From a virus, in IMG/VR virus record IMGVR_UViG_3300021490_000001, positions 1-64,000 of that record: a stretch of 64,000 nucleotides of DNA; one strand, written 5' to 3'. The position numbers were made by a program, and so were the translations under genes. The notes below the pieces were generated by a model. The model saw only the letters and a program-made list of their open reading frames with translations. It made no database searches and was not told where the DNA came from. Below are positions 1,359 through 51,087 of this stretch, one piece after another. Numbering within the stretch: position 1 is the first letter of the stretch; each line of letters begins with the position of its first letter.

Positions 1359-1363
1359 TTTAA

Positions 1364-18376: not shown

Positions 18377-21300
18377 TTATATTGAATTTATGGTTAGTCC
18401 ATAATCGAAACCACCCATTGTGAAAACAGACGAGTTATATCCCCGTTTACACCATACTTGAAATGATCCACCTGGAGCTACTGTGCTTCCTATGTTTTGA
18501 AAAGTCTGTGTTAAATTAATATGAGAAGTATAGGCATTATTATCTGCACAGCTATCTACAATATTTTGATATGCAAGAGATGTATTCATTTGCACTTGTC
18601 CTGTGGCAGAACCATTGTTTGTGCAATTAATAAGTGGAATGCTATTTGTTTGACCTGATGCGTTTACCCAGAGCCAATTTGAATTTGTTGGTGGGTTATC
18701 TAAATCAATCAATGGCCTATATACTATTTGACTAATACCTGAGCCTAATGAACAATCTAGATCTGGTATGCCATTATCTATTGTAAAATTCTCATTGAGT
18801 AAATTAGAAGAACATCTGCTTGTAGTATCGCAATTTGTAAGATTTAATTTATAAATTCCATCATCTACAAGACTTGTATCAAAAGAGACATTAATCTCTA
18901 ACCCACCATCTGAAAAACTTCCATTTATTGTGTAATTGAAAGTTCCGTCAGTATTTCTAAGAGTTAAGTTTCCCGTTACTACATCTCCATTTGCATCTTT
19001 TCCTAAAAGACAGCCAATATCTATTGTAGAACTATAAGTTCCATTTTTGTTCTTATCACCATTAATATGAATTATTTGTGGTTTTCCAGGAGCATACTGA
19101 ATAACTCCAATTTCGTCTGTAGTAACTGAACTCCAACCACAATTTGAAAGATTATCGCAAGCATATATTTTATAAGTAATTTCATCTATATTATTATGAA
19201 TCTCTGAAAGCCAAACAACACCAGTTCCGCTATGTTGTGTAAATGTAGCTCCATCATCTGAACTTGTGTATAGCATTCCTGAAGTGTTCATACTAATATT
19301 TCCTATTAATGTTGTATCATCTGAATATTTTAAATCCCAATTTTTAACAGCATTTGCAGTTGTTACAAAACCAAAATAACTTATTTCTGTAGCTTTTACA
19401 GTTCCTATTGTTTCGTTTTCATCTATATAGAAATTTAGTTCATAGTAACTTACATTGCTCCTTGTGTAACTGTAACTATCTGTGGTTTCGATATTCCCAA
19501 GATAAACACAATTTGTAGAGTCTGAAATGCTGAGTCCATCTGTTTTTTTCGTTTCATTGCAATAATAAATTAATGAGTCTTTGTTTGAATTCGTTCCATC
19601 GATATAAAATAATACTTGCATAGTTGAATTAGATTCAATATCTCTATAATGGATTTCTGTTATTGCGGGATTATTATTATAATAACTTAGAGTATCTATT
19701 CCCATAGATTCTAATGTTGTTTTATCTAATGGAAAAAATTGATGGAACAAGCCTCTAACATCTGGTTTAGTGAAATTATAAACTTTCCAACCTGAACCAT
19801 TACTTGAACAAGTCAGATGCCCACAGGAACAATCATGCACGCTCCATTCCCAAATGTTATCAAACAAACTTTCAAACCATTTACTTTCATTCCTGTGTTC
19901 TGCTCTTTGTTCGTTATATGCTCCTCCTGCTTTGGTATTTGAAGGAAATCTCCATGAGAAGTTAAGATTGTTTTCTGTCGTATGATTGACAGTAGTGGCT
20001 ATTAATATGCTGGAATCATTAAGTCCATCTGTATCGGAACAATTGTATAAAATAGTTATTGAACCTGTACTGGAAGTGTTTATATCTGCAGGACTCTGAG
20101 AAATGAAGGTACAATTTGGTGGTAGATTTGGAACATATTCATCACTTAATGGAAGCCAGTCAATGTTTCCATTTGTTAAGTTATAATAATCATCACAGAA
20201 TCCATCAGTATTTGAATCAGTGCAAGTATCTGAATAATCATTTCCTGTTGAATTTGTCCAGTAGTTTCCACCGATTTGTGTTCCAATACTATATATTCTG
20301 GTTCCTGTTTGTTTTGTCGTGTTCCAATTGTTTGCATAAACTGTTCCAAACTTAACATTATCCGTCTGATTGAAAAGATTATTGTAAATGAGATTTACTT
20401 CTCCATTTCCTGCACCATTCATGTAAAGACCGTAAGTATTGGAATAGATTCTATTATCGTATATTGTGTTATTCGTGGCTGTTGTATCGAGTTGAATACC
20501 ATAATAGTTTGAATGTATTGTGTTATTGTAAATAAGATTATCATCGTCACTAATAAAAAGCCCGACATCAGAAGTGCCACTTTGTGAATATATTGTGGAT
20601 TCTTTTATTGTGTTTAAGTTTCCGTTTATATAAATACCGTCATCAGTATTTGAATTAGCGATTATGTTTGTAAATGTGTTTGAATTTGAATAATAACTGT
20701 AAATACCATTATAATTATTTGAATTAGCGATTACATTTGTAAATGTATTTGAATCTGAATAAGTACCATAAAAACCATAATTATTAGAATTAGCACTTAT
20801 ATTTGTAAATGTGTTTGAATCTGAATTATAACTATAAAAACCATAAGTATTTGAATTAGCTGTAATGTTTGTAAATGTGTTTGAATTTGAATTATAACTA
20901 TAAATACCATCATCGGTATTTGAATTAGCAGTTATATTTGTAACTGTATTTGAAACAGAATAATAACTGTAGATACCCCATTCCATATCGGTAAATTGTG
21001 AATTAGATATATTTGCTCCTTGTGTCGCAATTAAAAAGAACCCGTTGTTTTCTGTTCCTGTTCTATCCATAACTAAATTAGATACATTTGAATTATCAGC
21101 ACCGCATAAGATTATTTCAGACACATTATTAGTCCAATCCTGAATATTTACAGATGAATTATAAAACAATATTGGCTTTTCTTCTGTTCCTATAACATTA
21201 ACAAATTCTGAATTACAATCAAGTGCAGTTCGTGTGGTTACATAGTAAAAATCAGCTAATACATTGTCTTTTATAGTAATATTTGTAAATGTGTTTGAAT

Positions 21301-22867
21301 CTGAAATATAACTGTAAATACCATAATTATTTGAATTAGCTGTAATGTTTGCAAATATATTTGAATCTGAATAATAAATGTAAAAACCATAATTATTTGA
21401 ATTAGCAGTTATATTTGTAACTGTATTTGAATCTGAATAAGAACATGAAATACCAAAAGTATTTGAATTAGCAGTTAGATTTGTAACTGTATTTGAATCT
21501 GAATAATAAGTATAAATACCATTATCAGGATTTGAATTCACTGTATTATTAGTCAAATTATTTCCATCAGCGTAATATAAATAAATTCCATTAGTGTCCC
21601 AATCACTAACAACACAATTCTTAATAGTCACATTCGTGGTTTCAGCAGATGCTCTCTTGACATAAATCCCATAATCTGCTACATCATCACCGTCAATAGT
21701 AAATCCTGCACAATCGAGAGTTACATCATTTGCACTGATGTTTATGCAGTAGCTTGTAGAAGAACCTGTAATGCTTTGGTTCATGGTATATGTTCCTGCT
21801 TGGTCTAATACCATACAGCCAGAAACAATCGGATCTATCTCAATGTCAAGAATTGTTATGTTGAACTTATCTGTTGCCCACATAGGATAATCAAATTCAT
21901 AAGTTATAGTATGGTTTCCTTTAGTTAGTGATTTCATTTTTTTCAATGTGATTTCCTTGGTGGTACCTTTATTATTAACAATATCAGGAATCTTATCGTT
22001 TAACTTACTAAGATGTTTGTCTAATGTTACAACTTTCTTTGTAAATGGTCTCTTTTTGAAAGCCAGACCTGGATTCAAATCTTGTACTTTTGCAGGAGTA
22101 TCAGACTTGTATTCGATATCAACAGCTAACGAACAATGAACTGTGTTATTTTCTCTAGCAACGCAATGTGCACTATTGGGTACCTTTAATGAATATTTGT
22201 CTGATTCATACTTCCAATAATTCGTAGTTATATATTGCGAAACATTAGTTATCTCATGTGTTTCACTTGATTCGTTTATCGCCTCTATATAGCCCGCAAA
22301 TACTTCTTCAGTTACAAATGTTAATCCTGCTTTCCATATAGGGTCAATATCTACATAATCATCTAACATAAAAGACCACTTGATTGTATCTTCTGGTTTT
22401 TTATGGCCTACTAATTGTATTTTATTAACCTTTTTTCGTTCCCAACAATCTCCATCTTTAATGGGCCTGTATTTATTGCCATAAGTAGGTACATTCCAAT
22501 CTACTTGAATGTCATAAGGAACCCAAGAACCATTATCAAGAAGTTTCTGTGTTGTTATGATATTATCTATCTTATTCAAATTTACATGAAGTGTTCTGCT
22601 TCTGGCTACCTTTTTAAATAAAGTTTCGTTTTCATATTTGGTATTGTTATAATCAGCAAAACACACACGCCAATAAGAAGTGGTTACATTAATATAAGAA
22701 TTACATTCAGAACCGCAGGTTATGTCACCAGTGTAATTATAAGTTACACCCTTAAGATTAAAAAGAACTCCAAATAAATCTGTATAGGTCATTAATCCAC
22801 CAGATGCCACAATTACAACTAATACTGTTGCTGCTTGCTGCCAGGTAAATTTGTTCATTTCAATCAT
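18377..22867 (-). CDS. Giant secreted/membrane-anchored beta-helix (NosD-like) glycoprotein, 1496 aa
   Basis: N-terminal hydrophobic helix (ATVLVVIVASGGL); repeats SDSNTFTNITANSN; IGGNYW...D...DGFCD motif; dense N-x-S/T sequons. Confidence 0.8.
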   Translation of the reverse strand: MIEMNKFTWQQAATVLVVIVASGGLMTYTDLFGVLFNLKGVTYNYTGDITCGSECNSYINVTTSYWRVCFADYNNTKYENETLFKKVARSRTLHVNLNKIDNIITTQKLLDNGSWVPYDIQVDWNVPTYGNKYRPIKDGDCWERKKVNKIQLVGHKKPEDTIKWSFMLDDYVDIDPIWKAGLTFVTEEVFAGYIEAINESSETHEITNVSQYITTNYWKYESDKYSLKVPNSAHCVARENNTVHCSLAVDIEYKSDTPAKVQDLNPGLAFKKRPFTKKVVTLDKHLSKLNDKIPDIVNNKGTTKEITLKKMKSLTKGNHTITYEFDYPMWATDKFNITILDIEIDPIVSGCMVLDQAGTYTMNQSITGSSTSYCINISANDVTLDCAGFTIDGDDVADYGIYVKRASAETTNVTIKNCVVSDWDTNGIYLYYADGNNLTNNTVNSNPDNGIYTYYSDSNTVTNLTANSNTFGISCSYSDSNTVTNITANSNNYGFYIYYSDSNIFANITANSNNYGIYSYISDSNTFTNITIKDNVLADFYYVTTRTALDCNSEFVNVIGTEEKPILFYNSSVNIQDWTNNVSEIILCGADNSNVSNLVMDRTGTENNGFFLIATQGANISNSQFTDMEWGIYSYYSVSNTVTNITANSNTDDGIYSYNSNSNTFTNITANSNTYGFYSYNSDSNTFTNISANSNNYGFYGTYSDSNTFTNVIANSNNYNGIYSYYSNSNTFTNIIANSNTDDGIYINGNLNTIKESTIYSQSGTSDVGLFISDDDNLIYNNTIHSNYYGIQLDTTATNNTIYDNRIYSNTYGLYMNGAGNGEVNLIYNNLFNQTDNVKFGTVYANNWNTTKQTGTRIYSIGTQIGGNYWTNSTGNDYSDTCTDSNTDGFCDDYYNLTNGNIDWLPLSDEYVPNLPPNCTFISQSPADINTSSTGSITILYNCSDTDGLNDSSILIATTVNHTTENNLNFSWRFPSNTKAGGAYNEQRAEHRNESKWFESLFDNIWEWSVHDCSCGHLTCSSNGSGWKVYNFTKPDVRGLFHQFFPLDKTTLESMGIDTLSYYNNNPAITEIHYRDIESNSTMQVLFYIDGTNSNKDSLIYYCNETKKTDGLSISDSTNCVYLGNIETTDSYSYTRSNVSYYELNFYIDENETIGTVKATEISYFGFVTTANAVKNWDLKYSDDTTLIGNISMNTSGMLYTSSDDGATFTQHSGTGVVWLSEIHNNIDEITYKIYACDNLSNCGWSSVTTDEIGVIQYAPGKPQIIHINGDKNKNGTYSSTIDIGCLLGKDANGDVVTGNLTLRNTDGTFNYTINGSFSDGGLEINVSFDTSLVDDGIYKLNLTNCDTTSRCSSNLLNENFTIDNGIPDLDCSLGSGISQIVYRPLIDLDNPPTNSNWLWVNASGQTNSIPLINCTNNGSATGQVQMNTSLAYQNIVDSCADNNAYTSHINLTQTFQNIGSTVAPGGSFQVWCKRGYNSSVFTMGGFDYGLTINSI

Positions 22868-24460: not shown

Positions 24461-24856
24461 CTACTTCTTTTTTCTTAAGTCTCTAACATCTTGTTTTATT
24501 TCGCTAATCGAGAAGCTAATACTCTTATTGCTTGCGTTTATTTCTGCTGTATGTACTTCAAGACCATTTATCATTTTAGTTAGTGACCTGATTTCTTTTT
24601 GTGTGTTGTTCATTACTTCGATTATTTTACTATCCAGACTTGATTTCGTATGTTCAAAATCTTTTCTGAGACACTTATGGTCAGTTTTAATAATTTTCAG
24701 CTCTTTAGTTGATTGATTTTTATGTGTATTAAGTTCTTTTATTATCGCTTTATGATTCAATGAAAATAAAAACGCGATAAAGGATAATAATAGTAACGAT
24801 ACAACACTCATAGGTTTCAACTCTACTGGAACCCATGTAAACAAACTCTCTATCAA
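24461..24856 (-). CDS. Membrane-anchored coiled-coil protein (holin/lysis-associated candidate)
   Basis: One TM helix (VVSLLLLSFIAFLFSL) followed by coiled coil. Confidence 0.5.
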   Translation of the reverse strand: MIESLFTWVPVELKPMSVVSLLLLSFIAFLFSLNHKAIIKELNTHKNQSTKELKIIKTDHKCLRKDFEHTKSSLDSKIIEVMNNTQKEIRSLTKMINGLEVHTAEINASNKSISFSISEIKQDVRDLRKKK

Positions 24857-27991: not shown

Positions 27992-28242
27992 AATAGATCT
28001 TCCTCCTTGATATTGAAAAAATATTGAATCCAATTTGGTGTATTAAGCCAATAGTTAATAATATGTCTTTCGTTTTGAGATGTATCATGAGAATCAAACG
28101 CTTTAATCCATTTGATAGCCTCTGCTTTTAGAGCTTCTTCAGTGATAGTATGATTCATACCACAGGTAGCGCATATGCTTCCTTCAATGCCTTGGTGCAG
28201 TTCGCAGCCAATTAAGTCATTTAATGTTTTTGGTCTTATCAT
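27988..28242 (-). CDS. Hypothetical viral protein
   Basis: LKAEAIKWIK...WIQYFFNIKEEDL; SD GAGGAG. Confidence 0.6.
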   Translation of the reverse strand: MIRPKTLNDLIGCELHQGIEGSICATCGMNHTITEEALKAEAIKWIKAFDSHDTSQNERHIINYWLNTPNWIQYFFNIKEEDLL

Positions 28243-30869: not shown

Positions 30870-30880
30870 TTCATTCACCT

Positions 30881-38990: not shown

Positions 38991-40511
38991 TTATTTATAT
39001 AGTAATGCGATCGAATCAAAACGAGGTATCCTATCTGTTGAATCATTGTTCATTATTACCTTTATTCGTGGATATCTTCCAGCATTGATTATAGTATGAA
39101 CTTCTTTTAGATTGACTGATTCCCATATGTTTGATGCAGTGAATGCAACATAGAATTTACAATTATCTGTTTTATAATCTGCATTTGTCTTTATCATGCA
39201 TTCTGTTGGTGTAAAGCTTAATACAGAACTTGGTGAAATCCAAGTGCCTGTGCTTCCAGAAATTACAGCTAATTCTGTTTTTTCATTGTTGTTGCTAGTT
39301 ATATTTGTAACATTAGAACTTGATGGATCTATATCACTACTTGAATCAAAGGTATAATTGATCGAATATTGCATTCCCTCTTCTTGAATATCCTTAAGGG
39401 CTCCTTTTGCTTTATCATTTAATTCCAATATGCTCGTACTTAAATCACTTGGTCTCTGGGCATAATTAAATGAAGTAAGCAATCCCTGTTCATTGAGTGT
39501 TGTTGTAAATGAGACTATATCTTTCCATCCATTTACTCCATCATAAGGTGAGACTACTCTGAGTTCATAACCGGGTATTTGATTAACTAATCCAATACAT
39601 CTTCCGCGTCCCATATTTTTTTCAGCACTTAATTCATTTAGTCTTTGAGTTGCCCTTACTATTAGCTGTTCATTAGTATAAGCTAAATTATCGTTATATA
39701 TATCTTCCTTGTCGCTTGATCCGGTAGATACAGTAGTTAAATTTGGCAATCCATCGATTCTTGCTCCTGATGCATATATCTTATTTCGGATAGTCGTTGA
39801 ATCGAATATATTATTCAAAGAGATTAAATTCATTGCATATGCAACATATTCTGTACTATTTTGCCTTCCTGCTCCTGTTTTCTTAAAGAAGTAAAAATCC
39901 TTGAATGTATTTCCTTTGAGGAATAAATAACATCCACAATACTCAGCTACAGTCCGTAGGCAGTCCATAACAGACTGACCAACGAATTTAGGGGCTAAAG
40001 TATCCGCGATAGCATCTACATTCGTATATGTAAATCCTGTAGTGTAGGTATCTATTATATCCTTTATGATATAATCTCCTGTCTGTGCGCTTGTATAGCT
40101 CTTCCAGACGAAGATCTTATGCAGGTCATAGGTATAATCATAGCTAGTTAAAGTTACGAATCTACCACTTGTGCTTAGATCTAGAGAATATTTTTTGACG
40201 GTTCCTTCGAACTGTTGAGTTGTCGCATCCTGGAAATCATAATAGATTTTAATCACTGCATCATTTTCTATCTTGTCTGTAAAGTAGCCATTCTTGTTGA
40301 CTAAGACCACATTAGATGACCATGATCTAGCGTCTGCATTAGCGGATACGCTAATTGATTTGACATAATCTGAAATGTCCGTTAATGTGGAATCTATCAT
40401 CAGCTCTACTTTTCTATATGGTCTATAGTATTCACCTGGAACGAATACTCTTCCATCTACTGATTTCTTTATAGGGCTTGAACTTATTGAATTAACTGCC
40501 ATTACCAACAA
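38991..40511 (-). CDS. Baseplate hub / tail tip protein (gpD/Tal-like); start probably MAVNS 40502
   Basis: DISDYV, QFEGTV, IIKDII, DCLRTVAE, IRNKIYASG, PGYELRV pattern; downstream of the tape measure. Confidence 0.7.
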   Translation of the reverse strand: MLVMAVNSISSSPIKKSVDGRVFVPGEYYRPYRKVELMIDSTLTDISDYVKSISVSANADARSWSSNVVLVNKNGYFTDKIENDAVIKIYYDFQDATTQQFEGTVKKYSLDLSTSGRFVTLTSYDYTYDLHKIFVWKSYTSAQTGDYIIKDIIDTYTTGFTYTNVDAIADTLAPKFVGQSVMDCLRTVAEYCGCYLFLKGNTFKDFYFFKKTGAGRQNSTEYVAYAMNLISLNNIFDSTTIRNKIYASGARIDGLPNLTTVSTGSSDKEDIYNDNLAYTNEQLIVRATQRLNELSAEKNMGRGRCIGLVNQIPGYELRVVSPYDGVNGWKDIVSFTTTLNEQGLLTSFNYAQRPSDLSTSILELNDKAKGALKDIQEEGMQYSINYTFDSSSDIDPSSSNVTNITSNNNEKTELAVISGSTGTWISPSSVLSFTPTECMIKTNADYKTDNCKFYVAFTASNIWESVNLKEVHTIINAGRYPRIKVIMNNDSTDRIPRFDSIALLYK

Positions 40512-43500
40512 CTCACACAGTCACTGCAACAGGCTGATATGTTGTAGGTTATATCAGGATAGGTTCCACCTGCTGTACAGCTAAAATAATCTCTCCACAA
40601 CCATAAGCCATTTGAATCTAAGGAGTCTAATGTTAAGTATCGAGTCAGAGTTTCAGTTAGCAATCCTCCGTCATTCTTAGAGCTTGTATTGCTTATTGTT
40701 TCATTGATACATGAGTTTGGCTGGGTATCGAATCTGATTGCATAATCCGCTCTATGCGTGCTAAGAGATGATATGTTCATTATAGGGATGCTCGATGTCT
40801 GACCAAATGGAGTCACATTTTTTGAGTTGCTAGTTAGAGGCATATAATCTATATTTTCGATTAATCTTGGAAGAGTAACATCGAAATTGCTCCAAATAAT
40901 CTTTGCTGTGTGAGAATTATTGCTGGCATAGTAATTAACATTGCCATCAAAGTGGGCGGTTATAGTTACATTATCATCCCCATAATAAGATATGTTCAAG
41001 TTAGATAAAGTTACATTGCCCCAATAGTTAGCAGTGATGTTTAGAGGGATATCTACATTTTTTTCGTTTTTGTTATCCACATAATCTTGGAATTTAGTTT
41101 CATTCAATTCTATTGGATTATAGGTATAATTTATTTGGATATCTGAATATGTTAGATACCCAGGAGTTAAAGATGAAAAGACAATGGGAATATTGCATGC
41201 TGGTGATTCGCAGTTATTGGAGTTGATATATTGTTGTATACTTGTGGCATTTAGATCTATGTTTTTAGAATCATTAAAATCACCAGACATAGAATATTCT
41301 ATGTCTTCGTCTGCTCCTATATTGATTGTCACATTAGAAGGATATGATTTGGTATAGGTGTACTTATGAATCACATTATTTGCGTAATCACTGACATAAA
41401 AATAATCACCATCATTTTCGATACCAGATATTTTATATGTAGTAATCGAGCCAAAGCAGGAATCAGTTTCACTTAGATTAGATGTATAATATCTGGAGAT
41501 TCCTGTACCATAATCATTACTTTGGGTATAGATATAGTTATTAGATTCAAATGTGCCATAGGTTAGATATGCAGGTAATCTATCACTATTTAGTCTCCAT
41601 ACATTTTGATATGTGATTTCCGTTCCATCAACATTTCTTTTGGTAAGTTGGAAATACGTAAACATATGATATATTTCATTAAACTCCATTAAATATAGAT
41701 AACCATCATCTCCATATTCTATATCATAGAGTAGTCTTGGAGCTGTAAATAGTTCTTTGATGTATGTTCCATTTTTCCATAGTAAATGTGTTTTATTTGT
41801 TGATGTTTCAGTTATAAAATAATGTGTGCCATTACTTGTAATTCCATAGGCACCGTCTATTGTACTATTGAAGCTAGTTTGATAAGTTCCATCAGTATTG
41901 TATTCAAAGACGATTCCATTATCCCCTACAATTTGGATCCTACCAGTGGAATCGAGATTCATACCACGAGGAGTACCTACCCTAGAGATATCAAATGAGT
42001 CATTGATATTTGTTCCAATAGGGGCTTCAGCTCCAGTTAAAGTCAAATTAGATGTTTCTATTGTTGCATCTTTAGACATTCGAATATATCGAATACTTGA
42101 TTGAAATTCATTAACAAGCATGGCTTCTGTTTCATGATAAGTAGAGTCTTTGAGATTATATTGATAGCTATAATTCTCAGTTAAGTAGCCTGGTAGCTCT
42201 ATGTCAGCAATCGAATCATTATTATAATCTACATTTAGATCTAAACGATAATAAGAAAATACACCATTTTGGGGTGCAATATGCAACCCCAATTCAAAAT
42301 TAATTATTTCATAGTCTAAAAAATTATATAGTATAATAGGCTTTGGAAATGTATTGCTAGTCCATCCAGATTCAAATCGAGTATCTCGTTCCCAACAAGT
42401 ACCATTCCACTGATAAACTTGAAAGGTTGTTCTGGAAGTTGTTATAATTCTGCTAATTTCTAGTCCTTCTATACTTTTAAATGTCTCAGAATTTTGATAT
42501 AAATAACTATCAGATGAAGGTAAACCACAAACTTTAGTTGTATCCTCAATCCAAGTAGATCCATTATAGTAGTAGTTTCTATATCCTACAGCATCCGCAT
42601 TATATGAACTAGTCATCATTGTCCAATTATTTTCATTGTATAAGTTATAATCTACATTAGCAGCAGTTACCCATAATCTATCATGTATTCCGCTAAAGAT
42701 AGAATTATTAACGTTCCATCCAGTTCCATTCCATGTATAACCAGACCAATTTCCAGTATACAAACCAACAAATAAATGAGTATTTCCATCACCAGAAAAA
42801 TTAAAGTTAAATTCCGGATTAATCCATTTTTCTGGATTATATAGCCCATTAACCAGCGTTGAATTTTCTTCCCAACAAGTACCATTCCATTGATAACCAA
42901 TATATGAATCAGAATCATAATGAGCTAATATTAATGTCCATTTTTCGTTCCCTGAGAAATTATACATTATATCTCCAGCATCATATGAATCTTCAGGTAC
43001 TCCGCATCCAAATGTTTCGTTTAATTCCCATTTTTTAAATCTAAGATGCGTATTACCACTTATATTAATATATGCAGATTTAATTTGAGAGTAATTACTT
43101 AAAGTAAACCATGCTGTATCATTCTCAAATTCATCACTTATAAATTCAGTAGTTGAATCATTAAACTCATCTAATGTTGCATCTGTAGTCCAATTATATT
43201 CCACAGTTCCATTTGAGCAGATATAGTCATCACCGTAATTCGTAGAATCGATATCAAGGCAAATTGTCTCATTGATAAGGTCTCCAGTAGAATTTGTTAT
43301 ATTTGCTTTGAGTTCTGCCACATGACCTAATTCATAATATCTATCCTGGCTTAATCCATTTAGATATAGCGTACTCACTGAATTATTTGGTATTAGTTGT
43401 TGAACGGTCGTAGTCATATTAGACTTGCTTGTGTTTTCAGTTCCATCTCCTGCCCAGAATTCTGCTGTCAGGTTATCCCAATAAGTATAATTTCCATACC

Positions 43501-46249
43501 CAAGAGTTGCGATTAGTGTGTTTGTGTTGTTGGTAACTTCTGTTGAATATATTCCGCCGACTTGTGCATCGTTCTTGTAGAATTGAACATATCCTGTTAA
43601 TGTATCTCCGCTGCTCGGGTCTGTAATTGTCAAATTTACCAACCAATCTGTGTTGTTGTAGACCGTGTCTGGACTTGTGGCATTTGCTATAATTGTCGGT
43701 GGAGTATTAACCGTAAAATATTGGGTTGTTTCATTCATATTTCCTGCTGTGTCATTTGCATAAATTGTAATGTTATTTAGTCCTTCTATTGCAATTATTG
43801 TTGTGTTTGATATCCCATTGAATCCATAGAAAACACCATAAGATTCTCCTGCAATAAGATACCAAATACCACTTTTTTGAAATACTGTTGGAGCTGCATT
43901 CCCTCCAATGTCAGGAAGATTATCCACAATTTTATTATCTGATTGCCATTGTGTTCCTGTCCAATTATAACCAATAAAATTGCCTACATATTGTCCAACA
44001 ATTAAATACCATGTATCGTCTTTATAAAATACATCAGGCGAATTTCCATTCCCACCAGACAGACCGTTTATAATTCCTGTATCGTTTTGCCATTCACTTC
44101 CTACCCACTTAAAACCATAAAATACGTTATTATTTCCTGAAATTAAATACCATGTTCCATCTTTTTGAAAAACAGTAGGTTTTACTGTGGTTAATGAGGG
44201 AATTGTGAGACCCGTAATAATAGCAGAATCAGATTGCCATGTTGAACCTGTCCAATTATAACCACTAAAATGTGTTGAGTATTTTCCTACAATAAGATAC
44301 CAATTGTCATTTTTTTGAAATATTGTTGGGTTTGAATTCATTCCAACATCGCCAAGACCTGATACTATTGCTGAATCAGACTGCCAAGTTGAGCCAGTCC
44401 AGTTGTAGCCATTGAAAACGCCATCCATTTCACCTGCAATAAGATACCATGTTCCGTCTTTTTGAAAGACTGTTGGTACTGACTTGTCGCCAACATCGCC
44501 AAGACCTGATGTTATTGATGAATCGGACTGCCATTTGTTCGGAAAGCTAATATTACTTCCACCATTCAAACTATATGCTATCCAATCTAAACTTTCATCA
44601 GTACTCCAATTTAAATCAATATCCGTATAATTATAGGTAATATTTTCCGGAGAATCAATTGTTATTGTTGGGGGGGTGTTGTCATGTGTTTCTTCTTCTC
44701 CGAAATAGTAAGTCGGTTCTGCTGTTGTATATAATGCTCGTAATTCAGATGCAGAAAGAGTTCTATGATATATTCTAAGCTCTTCTAAACTTCCCTTTAA
44801 ATAGTCACTAGTGTCTTGTTTTTTCCCTATTTGCAATTTGTATGAATCTCCATCCTGTCTTATTTTTCCAGTGTGAGAATAAGAACCCTGAGGAATACCA
44901 TCTAAGTAATTGTATCCAATATCATTAGTATCATCGAAAGTAAAAGATAATAAATGCCAGTCATTATCAAACCATGATCCATTACTTAAACCGCCGCGAA
45001 CTCCACCCGTGTTTTCCCATTGGATAGCCATTTTATGATCAACATTATACCATCTAATCCAAAAGTTATAGTGTCCAGAGGAATACCATGAAGATAAAAA
45101 ATGATTGTAGTGTGAAGTATCGCTTAATTTTGTCCAAAAAGTCACTGTCCAATTGTTTGTATTTAACATATTTGATATTGAACAAAGAGTTATGAGATCA
45201 TTTCCATCGAAACTATATGCGCCATTCGAATCTCCTCTCCAACCAGTTGAAAGTGTTGCCCCGCTTACTGCACCGTTGCAGCTGCCCACCCTATCTATTG
45301 CATCACCATCGAAAGTGTAAAAATTCTTTATGTCTTCACCGAGCGTTTTATCTGCATCACTTGTAGTTTCAGCACTATCATTCCCATAATACATATAGAT
45401 TGTTGTGTTTGAAGTGTTCGATATTTCAGGGACTTTAACCCAAACAATTGCGTTTGTGCTTGAAACAGTCTTTTCAATCCAGTAGTCTACTTCCTGCTCT
45501 GTTGTATCATTAAGCCAGGTAAATCGCAGGTCTTTGAAAGTTGAATTCATCTTGCCTGAAACGTAATCAACATCCAATTTCAACTGATAATTGTTGGATA
45601 CATTCAGTCCTGTCCCGTTAATCTGAATTTTTTTTCTGTAAGCAAAGGATGAGTTAAACCATGTGGGGTCAAATAATCTTACATTATATGTTTCATCATT
45701 AGAATTTATCCTGTATTTAACAGTCAGCTTGCCAACATCTCTCCATTTGTATTTGTATATCCTGGAATAATAATTTCCTTCATCCCATTCAACTTTCATT
45801 TTATGGCCAAAACTTTGTGGACTTTTTATATCATTTATTGTTTCTCCTGTATAAAGCAAATCTGTTACATCATATTGCAGTATCTTACCTATTGCATTAT
45901 GCACTTGTATCCTATGCTCTACAGGAAACAATTCTACATCTGTAGTATTCGTTAGAAATTTATATGTTTCATTTACGGTTATGTTCTGCTTATAAAGAAC
46001 ATTGCGCTTTATGATTGTATAATCGCCATCGGATGAGTTTATTACTTCTCGATATTTGGCTCTCATTTTCTTAGTTCCATCGAATAGATTAACCCATTCA
46101 GTTCCGCTTACAACCCATTGCTCATTTTCCCAAACCTTGAAAATAGATTTGGTTGGCTGTATATCTATTCTAACTGAATCTGGCAACATAATGTAAATAC
46201 TGCAAGTCAGTATTACTAAAATCAATAGTCCTATATGATATTTTTTCAA
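40502..46249 (-). CDS. Giant signal-anchored adhesin-like glycoprotein (DUF2341, LamG/concanavalin, Ig-like, propeller-type repeats), 1915 aa
   Basis: MKKYHIGLLILVILTCSIYIML; DLRFT...YWIE...VWVKVP...IYMYYGN (DUF2341); GSLEELRIYHRTLS (LamG); PTVFQKDGTWYLIAG repeats; many N-x-S/T. Confidence 0.85.
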   Translation of the reverse strand: MKKYHIGLLILVILTCSIYIMLPDSVRIDIQPTKSIFKVWENEQWVVSGTEWVNLFDGTKKMRAKYREVINSSDGDYTIIKRNVLYKQNITVNETYKFLTNTTDVELFPVEHRIQVHNAIGKILQYDVTDLLYTGETINDIKSPQSFGHKMKVEWDEGNYYSRIYKYKWRDVGKLTVKYRINSNDETYNVRLFDPTWFNSSFAYRKKIQINGTGLNVSNNYQLKLDVDYVSGKMNSTFKDLRFTWLNDTTEQEVDYWIEKTVSSTNAIVWVKVPEISNTSNTTIYMYYGNDSAETTSDADKTLGEDIKNFYTFDGDAIDRVGSCNGAVSGATLSTGWRGDSNGAYSFDGNDLITLCSISNMLNTNNWTVTFWTKLSDTSHYNHFLSSWYSSGHYNFWIRWYNVDHKMAIQWENTGGVRGGLSNGSWFDNDWHLLSFTFDDTNDIGYNYLDGIPQGSYSHTGKIRQDGDSYKLQIGKKQDTSDYLKGSLEELRIYHRTLSASELRALYTTAEPTYYFGEEETHDNTPPTITIDSPENITYNYTDIDLNWSTDESLDWIAYSLNGGSNISFPNKWQSDSSITSGLGDVGDKSVPTVFQKDGTWYLIAGEMDGVFNGYNWTGSTWQSDSAIVSGLGDVGMNSNPTIFQKNDNWYLIVGKYSTHFSGYNWTGSTWQSDSAIITGLTIPSLTTVKPTVFQKDGTWYLISGNNNVFYGFKWVGSEWQNDTGIINGLSGGNGNSPDVFYKDDTWYLIVGQYVGNFIGYNWTGTQWQSDNKIVDNLPDIGGNAAPTVFQKSGIWYLIAGESYGVFYGFNGISNTTIIAIEGLNNITIYANDTAGNMNETTQYFTVNTPPTIIANATSPDTVYNNTDWLVNLTITDPSSGDTLTGYVQFYKNDAQVGGIYSTEVTNNTNTLIATLGYGNYTYWDNLTAEFWAGDGTENTSKSNMTTTVQQLIPNNSVSTLYLNGLSQDRYYELGHVAELKANITNSTGDLINETICLDIDSTNYGDDYICSNGTVEYNWTTDATLDEFNDSTTEFISDEFENDTAWFTLSNYSQIKSAYINISGNTHLRFKKWELNETFGCGVPEDSYDAGDIMYNFSGNEKWTLILAHYDSDSYIGYQWNGTCWEENSTLVNGLYNPEKWINPEFNFNFSGDGNTHLFVGLYTGNWSGYTWNGTGWNVNNSIFSGIHDRLWVTAANVDYNLYNENNWTMMTSSYNADAVGYRNYYYNGSTWIEDTTKVCGLPSSDSYLYQNSETFKSIEGLEISRIITTSRTTFQVYQWNGTCWERDTRFESGWTSNTFPKPIILYNFLDYEIINFELGLHIAPQNGVFSYYRLDLNVDYNNDSIADIELPGYLTENYSYQYNLKDSTYHETEAMLVNEFQSSIRYIRMSKDATIETSNLTLTGAEAPIGTNINDSFDISRVGTPRGMNLDSTGRIQIVGDNGIVFEYNTDGTYQTSFNSTIDGAYGITSNGTHYFITETSTNKTHLLWKNGTYIKELFTAPRLLYDIEYGDDGYLYLMEFNEIYHMFTYFQLTKRNVDGTEITYQNVWRLNSDRLPAYLTYGTFESNNYIYTQSNDYGTGISRYYTSNLSETDSCFGSITTYKISGIENDGDYFYVSDYANNVIHKYTYTKSYPSNVTINIGADEDIEYSMSGDFNDSKNIDLNATSIQQYINSNNCESPACNIPIVFSSLTPGYLTYSDIQINYTYNPIELNETKFQDYVDNKNEKNVDIPLNITANYWGNVTLSNLNISYYGDDNVTITAHFDGNVNYYASNNSHTAKIIWSNFDVTLPRLIENIDYMPLTSNSKNVTPFGQTSSIPIMNISSLSTHRADYAIRFDTQPNSCINETISNTSSKNDGGLLTETLTRYLTLDSLDSNGLWLWRDYFSCTAGGTYPDITYNISACCSDCVSCW

Positions 46250-46602
46250 GTGATCACCTTAAGTATGATTGTAAAGTCCCTGAATGTAGCATGCGTATCA
46301 GCATTATGAGGTATATTAACCGATTCAACTTGGACAGTCAGGTCTCCATTATCTGTATCATTATAGCTTACTGAATCGAGGCTGTCAGCATATCCCTTAA
46401 GCGTAGCCATATCAGCTTCTCGATTGGCTCCAAATAATCTTCCTTTGAGCGTTATTACATTGCTCATTACTGATACTACCTGTGTCTGTGGTGCTGTCCT
46501 TCCTGGAATAGGTTGAGCCGGGACTAATTTCTTATTTGGCCTGTCTACTATATTACAATATAAACTTACTGAACCTAGTGTTACTGATGTGATCCTTGTC
46601 AT
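46246..46602 (-). CDS. Putative distal tail protein
   Basis: Directly after the tape measure; IPGR...VITLKG pattern. Confidence 0.55.
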   Translation of the reverse strand: MTRITSVTLGSVSLYCNIVDRPNKKLVPAQPIPGRTAPQTQVVSVMSNVITLKGRLFGANREADMATLKGYADSLDSVSYNDTDNGDLTVQVESVNIPHNADTHATFRDFTIILKVIT

Positions 46603-49541
46603 ACTATCCCCTTAGCTTCTCTTAGTTTGTTTAATATCGAATCTGATATTGTCTCTCCGATTGATTCCTGGTCTGACATCGAGACTCCTGTAAATGTATT
46701 GTTAACTATTAAAGTTACTTCGCCACTTCCTGCATGTTCTTTAGCTATAACCCTTTCTCCTTTTTGGACAGCAATTATTCTATCAGATGTTATAAAACCA
46801 CCAGAGTGAAAATAATCCCTATATGGAGAATCTTCCTCAGGTGTAAAACCTCTTTTCTTTAATTCAGTAGCAGCGCCATATGCTCCTGATCCTCCTGATC
46901 TGAGCATGTCAAACAGATCTGCATTAGAATAGTCAGCCCATGTTTTGGAAGGCCCACGTGGCTCAGTAGGAACACGACTACTTCTACCTCCTCCACCTCC
47001 AGTTGCTTCACCTATGTTTACATCATAGCCTCGTAATTCAATAATCTTATTTATTGTCTTTACCATAGCAGAATATAAAGTAATAGTTTGACCTTCTAAG
47101 GTTCCTAAAGCAGAAGTGTATTTTTCTGCATTTTCTCTTGCTACCTTATATAGTGTAGTAGCCTTACTTATGGCTCCATTTACATCTTCTGTTCCATTGA
47201 ATAATAAGTCATTGGCTTTTAGATAGTTATCTTCTATTTCTCTTACATTCAATTGGATTTCTCTTCTCATAGCTCCGAATGACAATTCATATTGCATCTG
47301 AAGTAATTGGACGCTTGCATTAGCTTCATCGAGTTTTATCTTCTTTTCTTCAAAGGCGATCATCTCATCTTTGTGGGCTAGCTGGAAATCCAGAGACTTT
47401 TTTTGCTGTTCTTTATTTAGTTCCATCAATGCTTTGGCTTCTGTTTCATACATGACAGTTCCTTTGGAATGTTCTAATAACCTTCGTTGGATCGCTATAC
47501 CCTCAAAACCAGAGCGAAATTCAGTAAGTTTTTGTGCTGATAATGCCTTACCGTAAGTTGAAGTAGGACCATAGTTTAACATCATTTCTTCCTGGAGTTT
47601 CATGGCATTAATCTGGCCTGCAAATATTTCTCTCTCTGCTCCTATTTGACCAACGAATCTTGCTTGAGTAATTGCCCCCATCGTAGATTCTGCGTTTTTT
47701 AGAAGCTTGTTATATATACTGGTTTGAATATTTACGGATTTCTGTTTCAATTCTAAGGCGTTTAGAGTTCGTTCTTGGTTTATTAGAGCTTGAACCCCTT
47801 CTTCATAAGTTAAGTCAAGCCCAGCAAATATCGCTTCTTGCGTCTCTTTAGCTTTTTCTGATGCAGCTATCATTTGAGGAATACTTACCTCTACAGTCTG
47901 AAGCATCATTTTAGCCTGAGCATCGTATGCTTTAAGAAGACCTCTAGCTATCTGGAGAGCTTCAGCGTCCTCCATTCCGAATTTTTCGGCTATTTCTTTT
48001 TGCAATTCTTCTACGCTTCTTTTTGCGCTTGTGAAACCAAGAATTGTTTCCCTTAGACCTTTGGTTAAGTCTCTTGCAGTTTCATATTGTCCAGCCTTAG
48101 TAGCCTGTTGAATCTGCATAGTCATTGGCTGGAATACATCTTCAGCCATAAATCCAAGCCAAGCAGCCATTTCGGAATATTGCTGCATTCCCTGAACTTG
48201 CATTGCTTTACCTATGCCCTGAGTTAATTCATTGCCTATCTTAGATCCAAGACCTTCAATTGCTTCACCTATAGCAATCTTTCCAGGTCCTGTCGTCATT
48301 GCTCCTATTAAGGCACTAGCTCCAAGAGCTCCGGAAGTCCACAGCGCACCTGTTTTCAATACTCCCAATAGGCCTCCTTTACTGCCTGCGGAAATGGCTA
48401 GGCCTCCAATTCTTCCTCCTGCTTCGGCAACTAGTCTTCTTTGCAGTGCTGGATCTTCTATTCCTTTACCAACTAATTTTGGACCTAAAAGAGGGATTGC
48501 TCTGATTAATTCTTTAATGGAATTAGAATTTTTAGCTGTTTCTTTTATTACTTTAGTTGCGACATTAGTAGTGGCTGAGGCTTCTTTTGATCCGAGATAT
48601 GGTGTTTGTGTAAACATCTTAATGCTCTCAGCACGAAGTTGAGCTGTAGTTAATCCAGATGTAGGCCCTAATCCTGCTGCTCTTCTTGCAGCAGATAATT
48701 CCTGGCGAGTTAGAGCCAACGCATCCTTATGCTTAACTTCAGCTTTAATCAGTTCGTCTACATTGGCAGAAGCTGTGCGTCGTGCTGCACTAAGCTCATT
48801 CTGTTGTTCGGCTAATGTCCTGTAATATTTTTTGATATCAGAGTTTATTGAGGATATACCCTTGCTGATTTGTCTTTTATCAACAAATAGATTTCCTTCG
48901 CCTCCTTTGTTCTTCAATAAATCATATAATGCAGAGCGATCCGCTTTCGCTTTGGAAATCATTCCTCTTGTTTTATCGATCTCTTCAATCATTTGAGCCT
49001 GCGTTCCTGTCTTCCAGCTTGCTTTTATATCTGTAATTTCTGTTCGTATTTTGCTGATCTGCTTTTCGAGTTGAACTTGTTTTTCCAGGTTCTTAGTCGT
49101 AAATGATTCTAAACTAGCTGACTCTTTTTCTATCTTGAACATATCTTTCAATGATTTAAGAGCTTTTTCCCTGGTAGCTAAGGCTTTAGCTTCATCAGCA
49201 GCATTTATGGCTGTAGTTGCACTTTTAGAAATGTCAGATAGTTGCCCTACAGTTTTTGCTGCTTTGATCGATTTTAATCCTTTATATGCACTATAACCAA
49301 TTATTGATGCATCTATTACTGCACCGCCAAGTTGCATTTTTCCAAGCTCAATTAGCGGTGGGACTACTTTAGATACTTCAGAAGCAAGGCCAGAGTAGGC
49401 ACGCAAGGATTTCTCATTAGCGGAGAGTTGGTTTCTATTCATTTCTTCCAGGATTCGAATCATTTCTGCTTCTGTATTTCCTGTAATGTTATTCCCTATA
49501 GTATCTGCATCTATTATCCTGCCTTTAAATGTCTCTGCCAT
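46599..49541 (-). CDS. Tape measure protein
   Basis: 980 aa A/K/E/G-rich helical protein; C-terminal FHSGG...VQKGERVI; follows tail chaperones. Confidence 0.85.
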   Translation of the reverse strand: MAETFKGRIIDADTIGNNITGNTEAEMIRILEEMNRNQLSANEKSLRAYSGLASEVSKVVPPLIELGKMQLGGAVIDASIIGYSAYKGLKSIKAAKTVGQLSDISKSATTAINAADEAKALATREKALKSLKDMFKIEKESASLESFTTKNLEKQVQLEKQISKIRTEITDIKASWKTGTQAQMIEEIDKTRGMISKAKADRSALYDLLKNKGGEGNLFVDKRQISKGISSINSDIKKYYRTLAEQQNELSAARRTASANVDELIKAEVKHKDALALTRQELSAARRAAGLGPTSGLTTAQLRAESIKMFTQTPYLGSKEASATTNVATKVIKETAKNSNSIKELIRAIPLLGPKLVGKGIEDPALQRRLVAEAGGRIGGLAISAGSKGGLLGVLKTGALWTSGALGASALIGAMTTGPGKIAIGEAIEGLGSKIGNELTQGIGKAMQVQGMQQYSEMAAWLGFMAEDVFQPMTMQIQQATKAGQYETARDLTKGLRETILGFTSAKRSVEELQKEIAEKFGMEDAEALQIARGLLKAYDAQAKMMLQTVEVSIPQMIAASEKAKETQEAIFAGLDLTYEEGVQALINQERTLNALELKQKSVNIQTSIYNKLLKNAESTMGAITQARFVGQIGAEREIFAGQINAMKLQEEMMLNYGPTSTYGKALSAQKLTEFRSGFEGIAIQRRLLEHSKGTVMYETEAKALMELNKEQQKKSLDFQLAHKDEMIAFEEKKIKLDEANASVQLLQMQYELSFGAMRREIQLNVREIEDNYLKANDLLFNGTEDVNGAISKATTLYKVARENAEKYTSALGTLEGQTITLYSAMVKTINKIIELRGYDVNIGEATGGGGGRSSRVPTEPRGPSKTWADYSNADLFDMLRSGGSGAYGAATELKKRGFTPEEDSPYRDYFHSGGFITSDRIIAVQKGERVIAKEHAGSGEVTLIVNNTFTGVSMSDQESIGETISDSILNKLREAKGIV

Positions 49542-50055: not shown

Positions 50056-51087
50056 TTAACTCCATGGAGACGCATCTGAATTGTAGATATGGCAACTATC
50101 GAGAGCTAATGGTCTGATTGCCATAGCAAGTGTAATAGGGGTATTGCCTACGTCCTTAGTAAATCCAGGAGTATCAATTATTGAGTTTTTGAATCCTATA
50201 AAGATTTCGTCTTTTGTTGTAGTTGCACTACGAGTCATTGTGATATTGAAATTAAAGTCAAAGATAGTTGTGCCTTGTGCCTTGGTTGTGGTTTCAACAC
50301 CACCTGTGGTTCCTGTAAAGAACGCATCATAGTGTTTTCTGTCTGTGAAATCTACATTAAGGATTGCATTGTAATTTCTTCCCTGCTCATGGATTGCAGA
50401 GATGCATCGTTCGTCTCCTGTATCAGTGCAATACATTTTTGGATTAAGATCATTATCGATTGTGACTTCCCAGCGATTTACATTTTCGAATACTTCAGCT
50501 ACTGTAGTTGCAGCATTATTTGTCTTGATAACACAGTGATGCCACCTGAAAGGCTCTACATCCGGTGCGCTTGCTGTAAGGACAGTAGTTGCGATTCTCA
50601 TATCTTGGGCTATGAAATCAACATTCTCTGTTACAAAACCACCTGAGTCGCCTGAGATCGAATATCTGCTAACTTTGCATCCTTCATATTCTCTAGAGAA
50701 TCCACTACCTGCTACCTGGTCATACAAAGTAAACGAAGGGATTTCATCCTTCTCTGCGATTGTATGGTCATAGTAGTCTGCGGTTGTTGTTCCGACAGGT
50801 GAGCTTGTTACGCTTCCAAAGGCCATTTTCAAAAACCATCCATCACTTAGCCATTGTGAAAAAGAATCAGAATAGCTAAGAGGCCCTAACTGAGGTTGTG
50901 GCATGTTTCTTGTATTTACTCCATCAAAGAATCTCTGATCACTGAATCCTTTGTTTTCTGAGCCTGCTGGTCCTGAAATAGGGAACCTTAACTTAGTGGC
51001 TGCTGCTGTTGTAGCTGTTCCATAAGTTGCTTCTTCTGCTACAAATATCTGGCCTGAATAGCCAAATGCTGGTCGTGTAATTGTCAT
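50056..51087 (-). CDS. Major tail tube protein
   Basis: AEEATYGT, YDHTI, PSFTL, YEGCKVS, EVTIDNDL, GRNY. Confidence 0.85.
   Translation of the reverse strand: MTITRPAFGYSGQIFVAEEATYGTATTAAATKLRFPISGPAGSENKGFSDQRFFDGVNTRNMPQPQLGPLSYSDSFSQWLSDGWFLKMAFGSVTSSPVGTTTADYYDHTIAEKDEIPSFTLYDQVAGSGFSREYEGCKVSRYSISGDSGGFVTENVDFIAQDMRIATTVLTASAPDVEPFRWHHCVIKTNNAATTVAEVFENVNRWEVTIDNDLNPKMYCTDTGDERCISAIHEQGRNYNAILNVDFTDRKHYDAFFTGTTGGVETTTKAQGTTIFDFNFNITMTRSATTTKDEIFIGFKNSIIDTPGFTKDVGNTPITLAMAIRPLALDSCHIYNSDASPWS

Follow-up and report, generated by a model that had tools for sequence, protein, structure and literature searches.

The virus recorded in IMG/VR as IMGVR_UViG_3300021490_000001 has a genome of 72,197 bp that is complete according to CheckV, carries direct terminal repeats (an exact repeat of 127 bp) and has a G+C content of about 34%. 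Bases 1-64000 of this record make up the stretch of 64,000 nucleotides analysed here, which is referred to as the window. Within the tail module of this virus, directly before the gene for the baseplate hub, lies a minus-strand gene for a protein of 1915 amino acids. This protein begins with what looks like an export signal and is crowded with sequons, the N-x-S/T sites (x not P) of N-glycosylation, so that its product appears to be destined for the outside of the cell. The gene and the parts of its product are as follows.

46252..46259 (-): Shine-Dalgarno site AGGTGATC, 2 nt before the TTG start, read from the sequence
40502..46249 (-): gene for the 1915-amino-acid protein, intact open reading frame (ORF) with a TTG start
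46199..46249 (-): putative export signal, residues 1-17 (n-region MKKYH, core IGLLILVIL, small residues TCS; predicted cleavage)
45665..46198 (-): N-domain, residues 18-195, a predicted galactose-mutarotase-like beta-supersandwich (AlphaFold2 (AF2) pLDDT 92.5; no Pfam model)
45305..45538 (-): DUF2341, residues 238-315 (PF10102, 64.5 bits against a cut-off of 23.4, E 1.3e-17)
44741..45205 (-): LamG / concanavalin A-like lectin domain (Laminin_G_3), residues 349-503 (PF13385, 75.8 bits against 27.6, E 5.3e-21)
43805..44533 (-): five tandem units of about 49 amino acids, possibly propeller blades, residues 573-815 (motif register)
43055..43759 (-): most sequon-dense stretch, residues 831-1065 (20 sequons against 6.7 expected)
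42230..42874 (-): second, degenerate set of repeats, residues 1126-1340 (three units at 1126-1330; motif register)
40505..41350 (-): conserved C-domain with a Cys-rich tail, residues 1634-1915, holding 8 Cys

Architecture and N-terminus of the 1915-residue protein

An earlier note on this DNA had called attention to this ORF, which is indeed present and intact, and had described a basic-hydrophobic N-terminus, DUF2341, LamG and propeller repeats in its product. The N-terminus is as described, MKKYH being followed by IGLLILVILTCSIYIML. This stretch is the sole 19-residue segment of the whole protein with a Kyte-Doolittle hydropathy of at least 1.8 (the hydropathy thresholds used here are arbitrary). 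DUF2341 and LamG both score above their Pfam cut-offs. For the repeats, tandem units of about 49 residues are present, five of them regular and three degenerate, and the propeller fold itself is only possible; the units were found by their motif register, a self-BLAST having given no off-diagonal pairs. Residues 831-1065 yield a weak match to Big_3_5 (E 0.0018) that lies below the Pfam cut-off. The whole protein has no sequence match in the PDB at E<=0.01, and in NCBIfam only the delta-60 repeat appears, below threshold.

The gene most plausibly starts at the TTG codon rather than at the ATG of M21. This start is supported by the AGGTGATC site, by the overlap of 4 nt (TTGA) between the TTG codon and the stop of the upstream 118-amino-acid gene, and by homologues that align from residue 1-2 and show the same N-terminal design. 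No Shine-Dalgarno sequence like AGGTGATC precedes the ATG of M21. The public gene call, P0002 (1895 amino acids), begins at M21, 20 codons too late, and thereby loses the hydrophobic segment. At least two homologues, P0054 and P0071, look to have been shortened in the same way.

The same note had called the protein signal-anchored, which is probably wrong. When 78 N-termini are aligned, 55 of them have K at position 3 and positions 5-14 are hydrophobic, giving a core of only about 10 residues. Small residues follow at positions 15-17 (T/S/A in 69/78, S/A/G in 68/78 and S in 59/78), the net charge of the n-region is +1 or more in 67 of the 78 with a median of +2, and 72 sequences retain Y19. 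In the AF2 model of residues 1-200 (pLDDT 92.5), a helix occupies 3-14, and 18-21 already make up a strand that belongs to the folded domain. Because the core is so short, is followed by small residues and leads almost directly into the folded domain, the N-terminus resembles a cleavable Sec signal peptide more than a membrane anchor.

The modelled N-domain has a fold that is associated with carbohydrates and is typically extracytoplasmic. When it is compared with the beta-domain of a GH38 mannosidase, VIA-align gives a Z of 13.3 with a root-mean-square deviation of 3.1 over 172 aligned residues, and Z values of 11-13 are reached by dozens of accessory domains of glycosidases and lyases. The top Foldseek match is the periplasmic P1 domain of YidC (E 3e-4). 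Like YidC, the protein has an N-terminal hydrophobic helix followed by a beta-supersandwich (Foldseek TM-score 0.56; VIA-align Z 11.7 against P1), but identity to YidC is only about 10% and the 1915-residue protein has no insertase core. Since many accessory domains of glycoside hydrolases and lyases score as well or better (Z 12-13.3), the likeness to YidC reflects a shared fold and not membership. The idea of an N-domain that forms a Dit-like ring was set aside as unsupported, the structure matches being galactose-mutarotase-like supersandwiches (Z up to 13.3).

Sequon excess and the protein family

The 1915-residue protein contains 79 sequons where 36.8 are expected (z 7.7, 500 shuffles); a second estimate puts the expectation at 36.5 (z 8.2). 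Shuffles confined to blocks of 20, 30, 50 or 100 residues give z values of 7.8-8.7, and local composition is therefore not the cause of the excess. Control motifs are not enriched. The reversed motif S/T-x-N occurs 39 times against 36.8 expected, the adjacent motif N-S/T 34 times against 37.5, the shifted motif N-x-x-S/T 29 times against 37.4, D-x-S/T 29 times against 26.5, Q-x-S/T 8 times against 9.6 and N-x-A/G 10 times against 20.4. Within the sequons N-x-T (51 against 19.7) is favoured over N-x-S (28 against 16.8), and enrichment is about 2-fold in each of seven regions of the protein. The dense sequons reported earlier thus go beyond what the content of N, S and T would give, with six control motifs unenriched. 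The earlier note had also named two outcomes that would speak against its view, namely the lack of a signal or transmembrane prediction and a sequon frequency explained by composition; both were examined and neither was found.

A comparison with cytoplasmic virion proteins, which that note had proposed, was likewise carried out and gives no excess in the tube, hub, portal, capsid and signal-less fibre proteins; the hub, for example, has 6 sequons against 7.1 expected. Across this genome, the four ORFs with a basic-then-hydrophobic N-terminus hold 148 sequons against 78.6 expected, and the other 63 ORFs hold 114 against 130. Among the 52 ORFs of the window, a z above 3 is otherwise reached by one protein alone (61 sequons against 39, z 4.2), which lies just upstream of two ordinary fibre genes:

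18377..22867 (-): 1496-amino-acid NosD-type parallel beta-helix protein (Pfam NosD E 1.2e-43) with a signal-like N-terminus, sequon-rich

Two small proteins encoded at 24461-24856 (-) and 63173-63760 (+) also have N-terminal hydrophobic segments, with a mild sequon excess (4 against about 1.4 each). The former lies in the late block and may be a membrane protein of lysis or egress.

A search of 5.8 billion proteins returned 108 matches to the 1915-residue protein. With its own record dropped, 77 homologues share the first ~195 residues at 33-64% identity, and in 51 of these 77 the last ~280 residues are shared as well (24-37% identity); the middle varies among the proteins and may hold LamG, Ig-like (immunoglobulin-like), beta-helix or other modules. 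A hydrophobic N-terminal segment is present in 74 of the 77 (15-residue segments with a Kyte-Doolittle mean of at least 2.0 within the first 50 residues), and two of the remaining three are gene calls that start just after it. A sequon excess with z of at least 3 is found in 76 of the 77, and summed over all of them there are 5299 sequons against 2290 expected, with the reversed motif at 2371. The beta-helix and C-terminal segments of the 1496-residue protein recur inside the family members of two related loci, L009 and L010.

When residues 1-200 were used as the query in a full HMMER scan of 1.84 billion representatives (clusters at 50% identity), 642 clusters were found at E<=0.001, 595 at E<=1e-10 and 252 at E<=1e-30. 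In all but two of the 150 clusters listed, the match starts in the first ~25 residues. The same residues gave no tblastn match in 50,697 named phage records and no usable match in the ESM Atlas. The family is large, its defining domains have no Pfam model, and it has no member in named phages.

The tail-tip cassette in this virus and its relatives

The structural genes of the virus form one long minus-strand block. From the tube gene onwards the order is a 102-amino-acid gene, the 980-amino-acid gene, the 118-amino-acid gene, the 1915-amino-acid gene, the 506-amino-acid gene, the portal gene, a 1914-amino-acid gene and the major capsid gene, and beyond the last of these lie the gene for the 1496-residue beta-helix protein and two fibre genes. 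The genes that define the setting are as follows.

50056..51087 (-): tail tube protein (Pfam Phage_tube_2 E 1.2e-20; phrog_290 E 6e-22)
46599..49541 (-): 980-amino-acid protein, presumed tape measure from its length and its position after the tube and the 102-amino-acid gene
46246..46602 (-): 118-amino-acid protein in the position of a distal tail protein (position only); its stop overlaps the TTG start of the 1915-amino-acid gene
38991..40511 (-): baseplate hub (gp27/gpD/XkdQ-like), 506 amino acids, likely start ATG 40502; overlaps or abuts the end of the 1915-amino-acid gene
37741-38955: Mu-type portal, within the minus-strand structural block
29982-30878: major capsid protein, within the minus-strand structural block
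69545-70975 of the full record, outside the window (-): large terminase (phrog_38, E 5.4e-39)

The earlier note had placed the protein between a distal-tail-like gene and the hub gene. The hub assignment stands. In the Atlas its structure matches are the YqbQ/XkdQ, Phage_GPD and VgrG clusters (TM-score 0.52-0.64), and a profile built from seven hub homologues matches PDB 9h4p 'Baseplate hub' over positions 47-364 (E 2.4e-5). The possibility that the 506-amino-acid gene encodes the terminase was rejected, as it matches hub proteins and the terminase lies at 69545-70975 (-). The term distal-tail-like for the 118-amino-acid gene describes its position only: the protein has no match in Pfam, PHROG or the PDB profiles, the best PDB-profile rows being at chance level (E 0.34 and 0.42), and in related loci its place is taken by some small gene. 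The 980-amino-acid protein has no family match in Pfam or PHROG. An HK97-type capsid, a portal, a terminase, a tube and a hub are all encoded by the virus.

The order of tube, small gene (read as a chaperone gene), tape measure, small gene, 1915-type protein and hub recurs in related viruses. In these too the stop and start codons overlap, and their tube and hub share only ~22-26% identity with those of the window. Placement between the gene in the tape-measure position and the hub was found in the window and in L005, L007, L010, L012, L015, L029, L033, L050, L066 and L067. Relatives were also sampled by the tube protein alone, an alignment of three tube sequences gathering 47 loci, 31 of which extend for 3 kb or more downstream; used as the query, the tube protein of the window found no close relative. 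In this tube-anchored sample the N-domain lies downstream of the tube in three loci and upstream in two. The C-domain lies directly before the hub in 8/8 tube-anchored loci with this hub type, including those with a different N-terminal part, these eight not all being independent (L027 and L007 are one contig, and L052 and L054 seem to come from one virus). Five of the 11 loci that were read carry a second tip cassette, consisting of a small gene and then a Tal-like protein of 631-881 amino acids that has neither a signal nor a sequon excess, and the viruses with this cassette are without the C-domain. Their signal-bearing, sequon-rich proteins are placed elsewhere, before the head-tail connector genes.

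Some proteins of this latter kind end in a transmembrane segment and a basic tail, namely those of L029 (625 amino acids, with the N-domain), L025 (2143 amino acids) and L007 (1600 amino acids). The anchored proteins of L025 and L007 gave no N-domain match in the searches, and the N-terminus of the former is different. Such a C-terminal membrane anchor was found in 0/12 of the proteins encoded directly before hubs. Since anchors never occur before the hub, the C-domain and the membrane anchor are best viewed as alternative C-termini, with the C-domain going with the hub. A modular, lectin-like putative adhesin is a fixed member of the tail-tip cassette (small protein, 1915-type protein, hub) in what would be a large group of uncultivated, siphovirus-like viruses.

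Sequons follow signals in the relatives as well. Over 14 related loci, 24 signal-bearing ORFs hold 567 sequons against 262 expected and the other 162 ORFs hold 569 against 409.9. The latter figure is inflated by five large ORFs (L007 28-4830, L009 7976-11569, L011 64-2316 and 9869-15394, and L015 41-1966; 229 sequons against 94.5) that are cut at the locus edge or were started too early by the simple ORF caller from which all ORF starts in the related loci were taken; without them the count is 340 against 315. The 12 proteins encoded directly before hub genes hold 718 sequons against 297.7 expected, and 11 adjoining hubs hold 62 against 65.3. Such contrasting statistics in overlapping, co-oriented genes are most simply explained if the products of the two genes reside in different compartments.

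All 12 of these pre-hub proteins have a basic-then-hydrophobic N-terminus, the charge ahead of the hydrophobic part being either positive or neutral, and these N-termini belong to three unrelated sequence types: that of the N-domain, and two with a longer basic stretch and, at the end of the hydrophobic segment, A-V-G or S-L-G. Because three unrelated N-termini share one design, it can be argued that export itself is what is selected. The pre-hub gene of L015 (9992-17922) consists of two separate ORFs, one of 1629 amino acids with the N-domain and one of 1016 amino acids with the C-domain, each with its own signal-like N-terminus.

Two further observations concern these N-termini. In L052 (9228-12657) a 189-amino-acid ORF, which may be a mobile insertion, interrupts the pre-hub gene, so that the N-terminal signal piece and the 813-amino-acid remainder are separate frames. 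In L050, L066, L067, L025, L040 and L047 a conserved, extended N-terminus (a basic stretch with V-K-K-W-A, then G-x-G and the hydrophobic segment) is found on otherwise different, giant, sequon-rich ORFs, and it may represent a dedicated type of signal for very large exported proteins.

The C-domain is the part of the family that travels with the hub. At least 3 Cys are found in the last 30 residues of 46 of the 51 homologous C-domains, and the C-domain alignment has 12 columns at which at least half of the members carry a sequon, against 2 for the reversed motif. Its AF2 model has a pLDDT of 78, and only the last ~120 residues match generic Ig-like or pilin-like sandwiches (Z<=6.5). When the hub and the C-domain were submitted to complex prediction, both as alignments, a median ipSAE of 0.55 was obtained (0.61, 0.54 and 0.55 in the three runs), and the best of three controls gave 0.00. 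The runs agree in at least 77% of the contacts, the partner pLDDT is at least 66, and the result was graded as weak support. The ipSAE mark used is reached by 116 of 157 solved complexes and by 2 of 215 mismatched pairs.

Among the other genes of the window, the 1914-amino-acid protein at 32000-37744 (-), between the portal gene and the genes in the scaffold position, has two ATP-dependent DNA ligase adenylation domains (residues 147-320 and 844-1020), and such an enzyme-rich giant is unexpected in the place of a minor head protein. On the other strand, a 125-amino-acid protein at 5660-6037 (+) matches a Tad2-like (Thoeris anti-defence 2) domain (E 5.7e-7). The Amidoligase_2 protein encoded at 192-2506 (+), which has a LIM-type zinc finger at its N-terminus, adjoins a class-II glutamine amidotransferase-like protein, and a 281-amino-acid protein at 9899-10744 (+) consists almost entirely of WG beta-repeats (E 1e-101).

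Probable export and glycosylation, and possible destinations

Archaeal AglB acts on the outer face of the membrane. The virus encodes no STT3, and the only glycosyltransferase-like Pfam match, weak and below its cut-off (TOD1_MUCI70, E 0.0036), fell on the terminase. A cytoplasmic N-glycosyltransferase of family GT41 (PF13844) was found in neither of two records, the complete virus genome and a linked, incomplete metagenome-assembled genome (MAG; G001), and a cytoplasmic route of this kind was rejected on these grounds. Among cellular genomes, the family is matched solely by a Woesearchaeota MAG, on a contig of 7.6 kb; this MAG also encodes STT3/AglB (45.4 bits, above the Pfam cut-off). Because AglB works outside, the virus has neither STT3 nor GT41 and this MAG has STT3/AglB, the simplest route would be the action of host AglB on an exported protein. 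A separate observation is that the structural block includes three sugar-related genes at 25786-28033 (-), a UDP-glucose dehydrogenase-like, a DUF2334/polysaccharide deacetylase-like and a methyltransferase gene, which may modify a glycan or a sugar donor.

The hosts are probably, on slender grounds, DPANN (Woesearchaeota-type) archaea. The N-terminal 200-residue query found one of 401 sampled genomes of the MAG's phylum, namely that MAG, and terminase relatives at 22-29% identity occur in 8 of the 401, a figure that has no control phylum beside it. The virus has a tRNA-Tyr(GTA) at 11015-11093 (+), 79 nt long, whose short variable arm we take to be of the archaeal/eukaryal type. The nearest named relatives of the capsid protein are mostly Bacillus phages (~24-26% identity), and the Methanobacterium phage psiM group is among the capsid matches. 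The archaeal host assumed in the earlier note is therefore plausible, if weakly founded, one 7.6-kb MAG contig being the link to DPANN.

The same note had reasoned that the protein is exported, and export together with N-glycosylation remains the best reading of the signal and the sequons. Judged from its sequence, the 1915-residue protein very probably undergoes both. The reading put forward here goes further, and its whole chain is given a probability of roughly 0.45: the protein would be an adhesin that is first exported and glycosylated by AglB and only then becomes part of the tail tip. It would be made with a Sec-type signal that is cleaved near residue 17 and would be translocated across the cytoplasmic membrane, after which host AglB would N-glycosylate many of its 79 sequons. 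Glycosylation by AglB is suggested because the sequon excess is specific to the motif, extends over the family and is tied to signal-bearing proteins. Once the envelope opens, the Cys-rich C-domain would dock onto the hub of tails assembled in the cytoplasm, as may be supposed from the gene coupling and from one weak complex prediction, and the glycosylated lectin modules and the N-domain would become the distal, host-binding part of the virion. Of the two fates that the earlier note had considered, addition to the virion after export is the one leaned towards because of this coupling of C-domain and hub and the weak complex prediction. In its most explicit form, the proposal is an extracytoplasmic step of tail assembly in which a Sec-secreted, AglB-glycosylated protein folds with disulfides outside the cell and is captured by the hub through its C-domain at envelope rupture; in that form it is tentative.

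A number of points weigh against such an addition to the virion. No tailed virus is known to us that adds an exported protein to its virion, and no exported or signal-bearing tail protein of a tailed archaeal virus is described in the literature found (subscription-only papers not covered). The whole 1915-residue protein has no sequence match to a known tail fibre family, with 0 PHROG families at E<=0.01, no tail protein or Dit-like fold is among the structure matches listed for the N-domain, and the C-domain has no decisive fold match, with nothing at E<=0.001 in a library of viral structures. The virus has ordinary fibre genes without a signal at 14629-18101. Most tail fibres have a polarity that is the reverse of C-terminal attachment with a distal N-terminus, and the 12 conserved glycosylation sites make the C-domain an awkward docking surface. 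The linkage of C-domain and hub could simply reflect recombination break-points in the variable middle. At an ipSAE of 0.60 or below only 18 of the 157 solved complexes pass, together with both of the passing mismatches, and a value of 0.55 thus falls in a band that is more often wrong than right unless the guess is already likely. The N-domain (40-64% identity) is far better conserved than the tube or the hub (~22-26%), and a conserved host partner therefore fits it better than a virion partner. The same viruses place other giant glycoproteins in the host membrane (the anchored proteins of L029, L025 and L007). Lastly, the link to the host is one short MAG contig.

An alternative possibility, to be taken seriously although on balance doubtful, is that the protein is exported and glycosylated but never enters the virion, remaining at the infected cell's surface or close to it. 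It would be retained through its C-domain or remain soluble under the S-layer, where it may act as an adhesin for cell-cell contact, as a mask or decoy against superinfection and the loss of progeny on debris, or as a glycan-binding helper in the breakdown of the envelope. All of the evidence for export and glycosylation applies equally to this alternative, which has no need of an extracytoplasmic assembly step. Relatives with the N-domain or with the same signal types (also P0051 and P0062) end in a transmembrane segment and a basic tail, the standard anchor of cell-surface proteins, and no virion protein comes near the N-domain in conservation. That domain is a carbohydrate-associated supersandwich, and YidC, too, carries this fold outside the membrane, after a membrane helix at its N-terminus. 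LamG and DUF2341, moreover, are found in giant proteins on cellular contigs of megabase size (P0089, P0108). Accessory surface genes are usually sporadic, however, and here the gene is a fixed member of the cassette whose frame overlaps its neighbours on both sides. The pre-hub proteins always carry the C-domain and never the anchor (0/12), the C-domain goes with this hub type in 8/8 loci and is missing from the viruses with the alternative tip (5 loci), and the complex prediction passed its mark, weakly (0.55 against 0.00).

It is improbable that the protein is instead a non-exported product of cytoplasmic assembly, whether an ordinary tail fibre or an enlarged tip protein. Its hydrophobic N-terminus would then be buried in the tip or inserted into the target membrane at infection, and its sequons would be used by some cytoplasmic glycosyltransferase or be structural. 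The position in the tail module, the modular and fibre-like architecture and the weak support for hub binding all agree with this, and virions of HRTV-DL1 gave faint bands with a glycoprotein stain while deletion of aglB was harmless to that virus (PMC10384203, in the available part of the source). Against it, a basic n-region before a hydrophobic core would be read as an export signal, three unrelated N-termini share this design, and the split version in L015 has a second signal. The sequon excess is confined to signal-bearing proteins and occurs in every type of fold, so that a structural role in one fold does not suffice, neither the virus nor the MAG has a GT41 enzyme, and the conserved Cys clusters would fit an extracytoplasmic protein. 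Least probable is a bacterial host (for example of a CPR lineage) without N-glycosylation, the excess of sequons arising incidentally from repeat or beta-strand patterns of an exported adhesin: the distant DUF2341/LamG matches include a Dojkabacteria protein (P0102), the named relatives of the capsid are mostly Bacillus phages (~24-26%) and the Woesearchaeota link is a single 7.6-kb contig, but only N-x-S/T is enriched, with N-x-T favoured and the reversed, shifted, D-x-S/T and Q-x-S/T motifs not, the excess is found in 76/77 homologues with very different middles, the viral tRNA-Tyr has the short variable arm, and the Methanobacterium phage psiM group is among the capsid matches.

Tailed viruses are thought to build the whole particle in the cytoplasm. 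The receptor-binding proteins and carbohydrate-binding extensions at the tip of siphoviruses (Dit and Tal extensions, tail fibres) have no export signal and are assembled there. The present family resembles them in being encoded between tape measure and hub and in having conserved ends with a swappable middle (lectin-like, Ig-like, propeller, beta-helix). It differs from them in its conserved Sec-type N-terminus and its 2.3-fold sequon excess, in an N-domain that is a galactose-mutarotase-like supersandwich with no Dit-like match listed and no PHROG match, and in a gene-order coupling that points to the C-terminus, and not the N-terminus, as the end near the hub. Lom of lambda and PblA/PblB of Streptococcus phage SM1 are encoded in the tail region, end up on the host surface and mediate adhesion. 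Lom is the product of a small, sporadic accessory gene, and PblA/PblB are without signals and are released by lysis, whereas the 1915-residue protein is giant, adapted to glycosylation and a fixed member of the tail-tip cassette. Giant cellular surface proteins with LamG and DUF2341 (P0089, P0091, P0102, P0108) share common modules and the design of a signal with a lectin, but they are without the N-domain and the C-domain and do not lie beside tail genes.

Archaeal viruses provide closer comparisons. HRPV-1 and HFPV-1, which are membrane-enveloped, have N-glycosylated spikes, as described in the available part of PMC10384203. Like those spikes, the protein would be a viral attachment protein that relies on host export and N-glycosylation, but HRPV-1 and HFPV-1 bud through the membrane, so that an exported spike is expected of them, and the tailed virus described here has no evident route by which to pick one up before the cell opens. 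For HRTV-DL1, the same part of that source reports faint glycoprotein-stained bands in virions, possibly including the attachment protein, nine sequons in ORF24 and no effect of the aglB deletion, and the available part of PMC10544981 assigns ORF24 to the virion and gives it Ig-like and sialidase domains. ORF24 is comparable in that it serves a tailed archaeal virus for attachment and has both sequons and glycan-related domains, but it has nine sequons, and these portions of the two sources mention neither an enrichment test nor a signal peptide, in contrast to the 79 sequons, the conserved signal and the whole family found here. The players in the egress of tailed archaeal viruses are uncharacterised according to the accessible part of a review (PMC10791045). 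Two tailed proviruses have been reported in Woesearchaeales, the portion of that report at hand making no mention of such proteins (PMC11705971), and a gene of more than 1900 codons for a glycoside-hydrolase adhesin is described, in the part available of the preprint, for nanohaloarchaeal viruses that are spindle-shaped and not tailed (bioRxiv 10.1101/2025.02.15.638363).

The family joins two signatures that seem mutually exclusive, a fixed place in the tail-tip cassette and the marks of an exported, N-glycosylated protein. It bears on two questions that are open in the field, namely how tailed archaeal viruses leave their hosts and whether they carry glycans. The combination of sequons and signals also offers a simple statistic, computed from sequence only, by which proteins of uncultivated archaeal viruses could be sorted by compartment. 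If capture after export is correct, this would be the first tailed virus with a virion protein that has passed through the host membrane, which would explain how host-type N-glycans come to be on a non-enveloped archaeal virus and would constitute a new assembly route for virion adhesins. If the protein instead stays on the cell surface, then this group of viruses would routinely re-dress infected, probably episymbiotic, archaeal cells with giant lectins.

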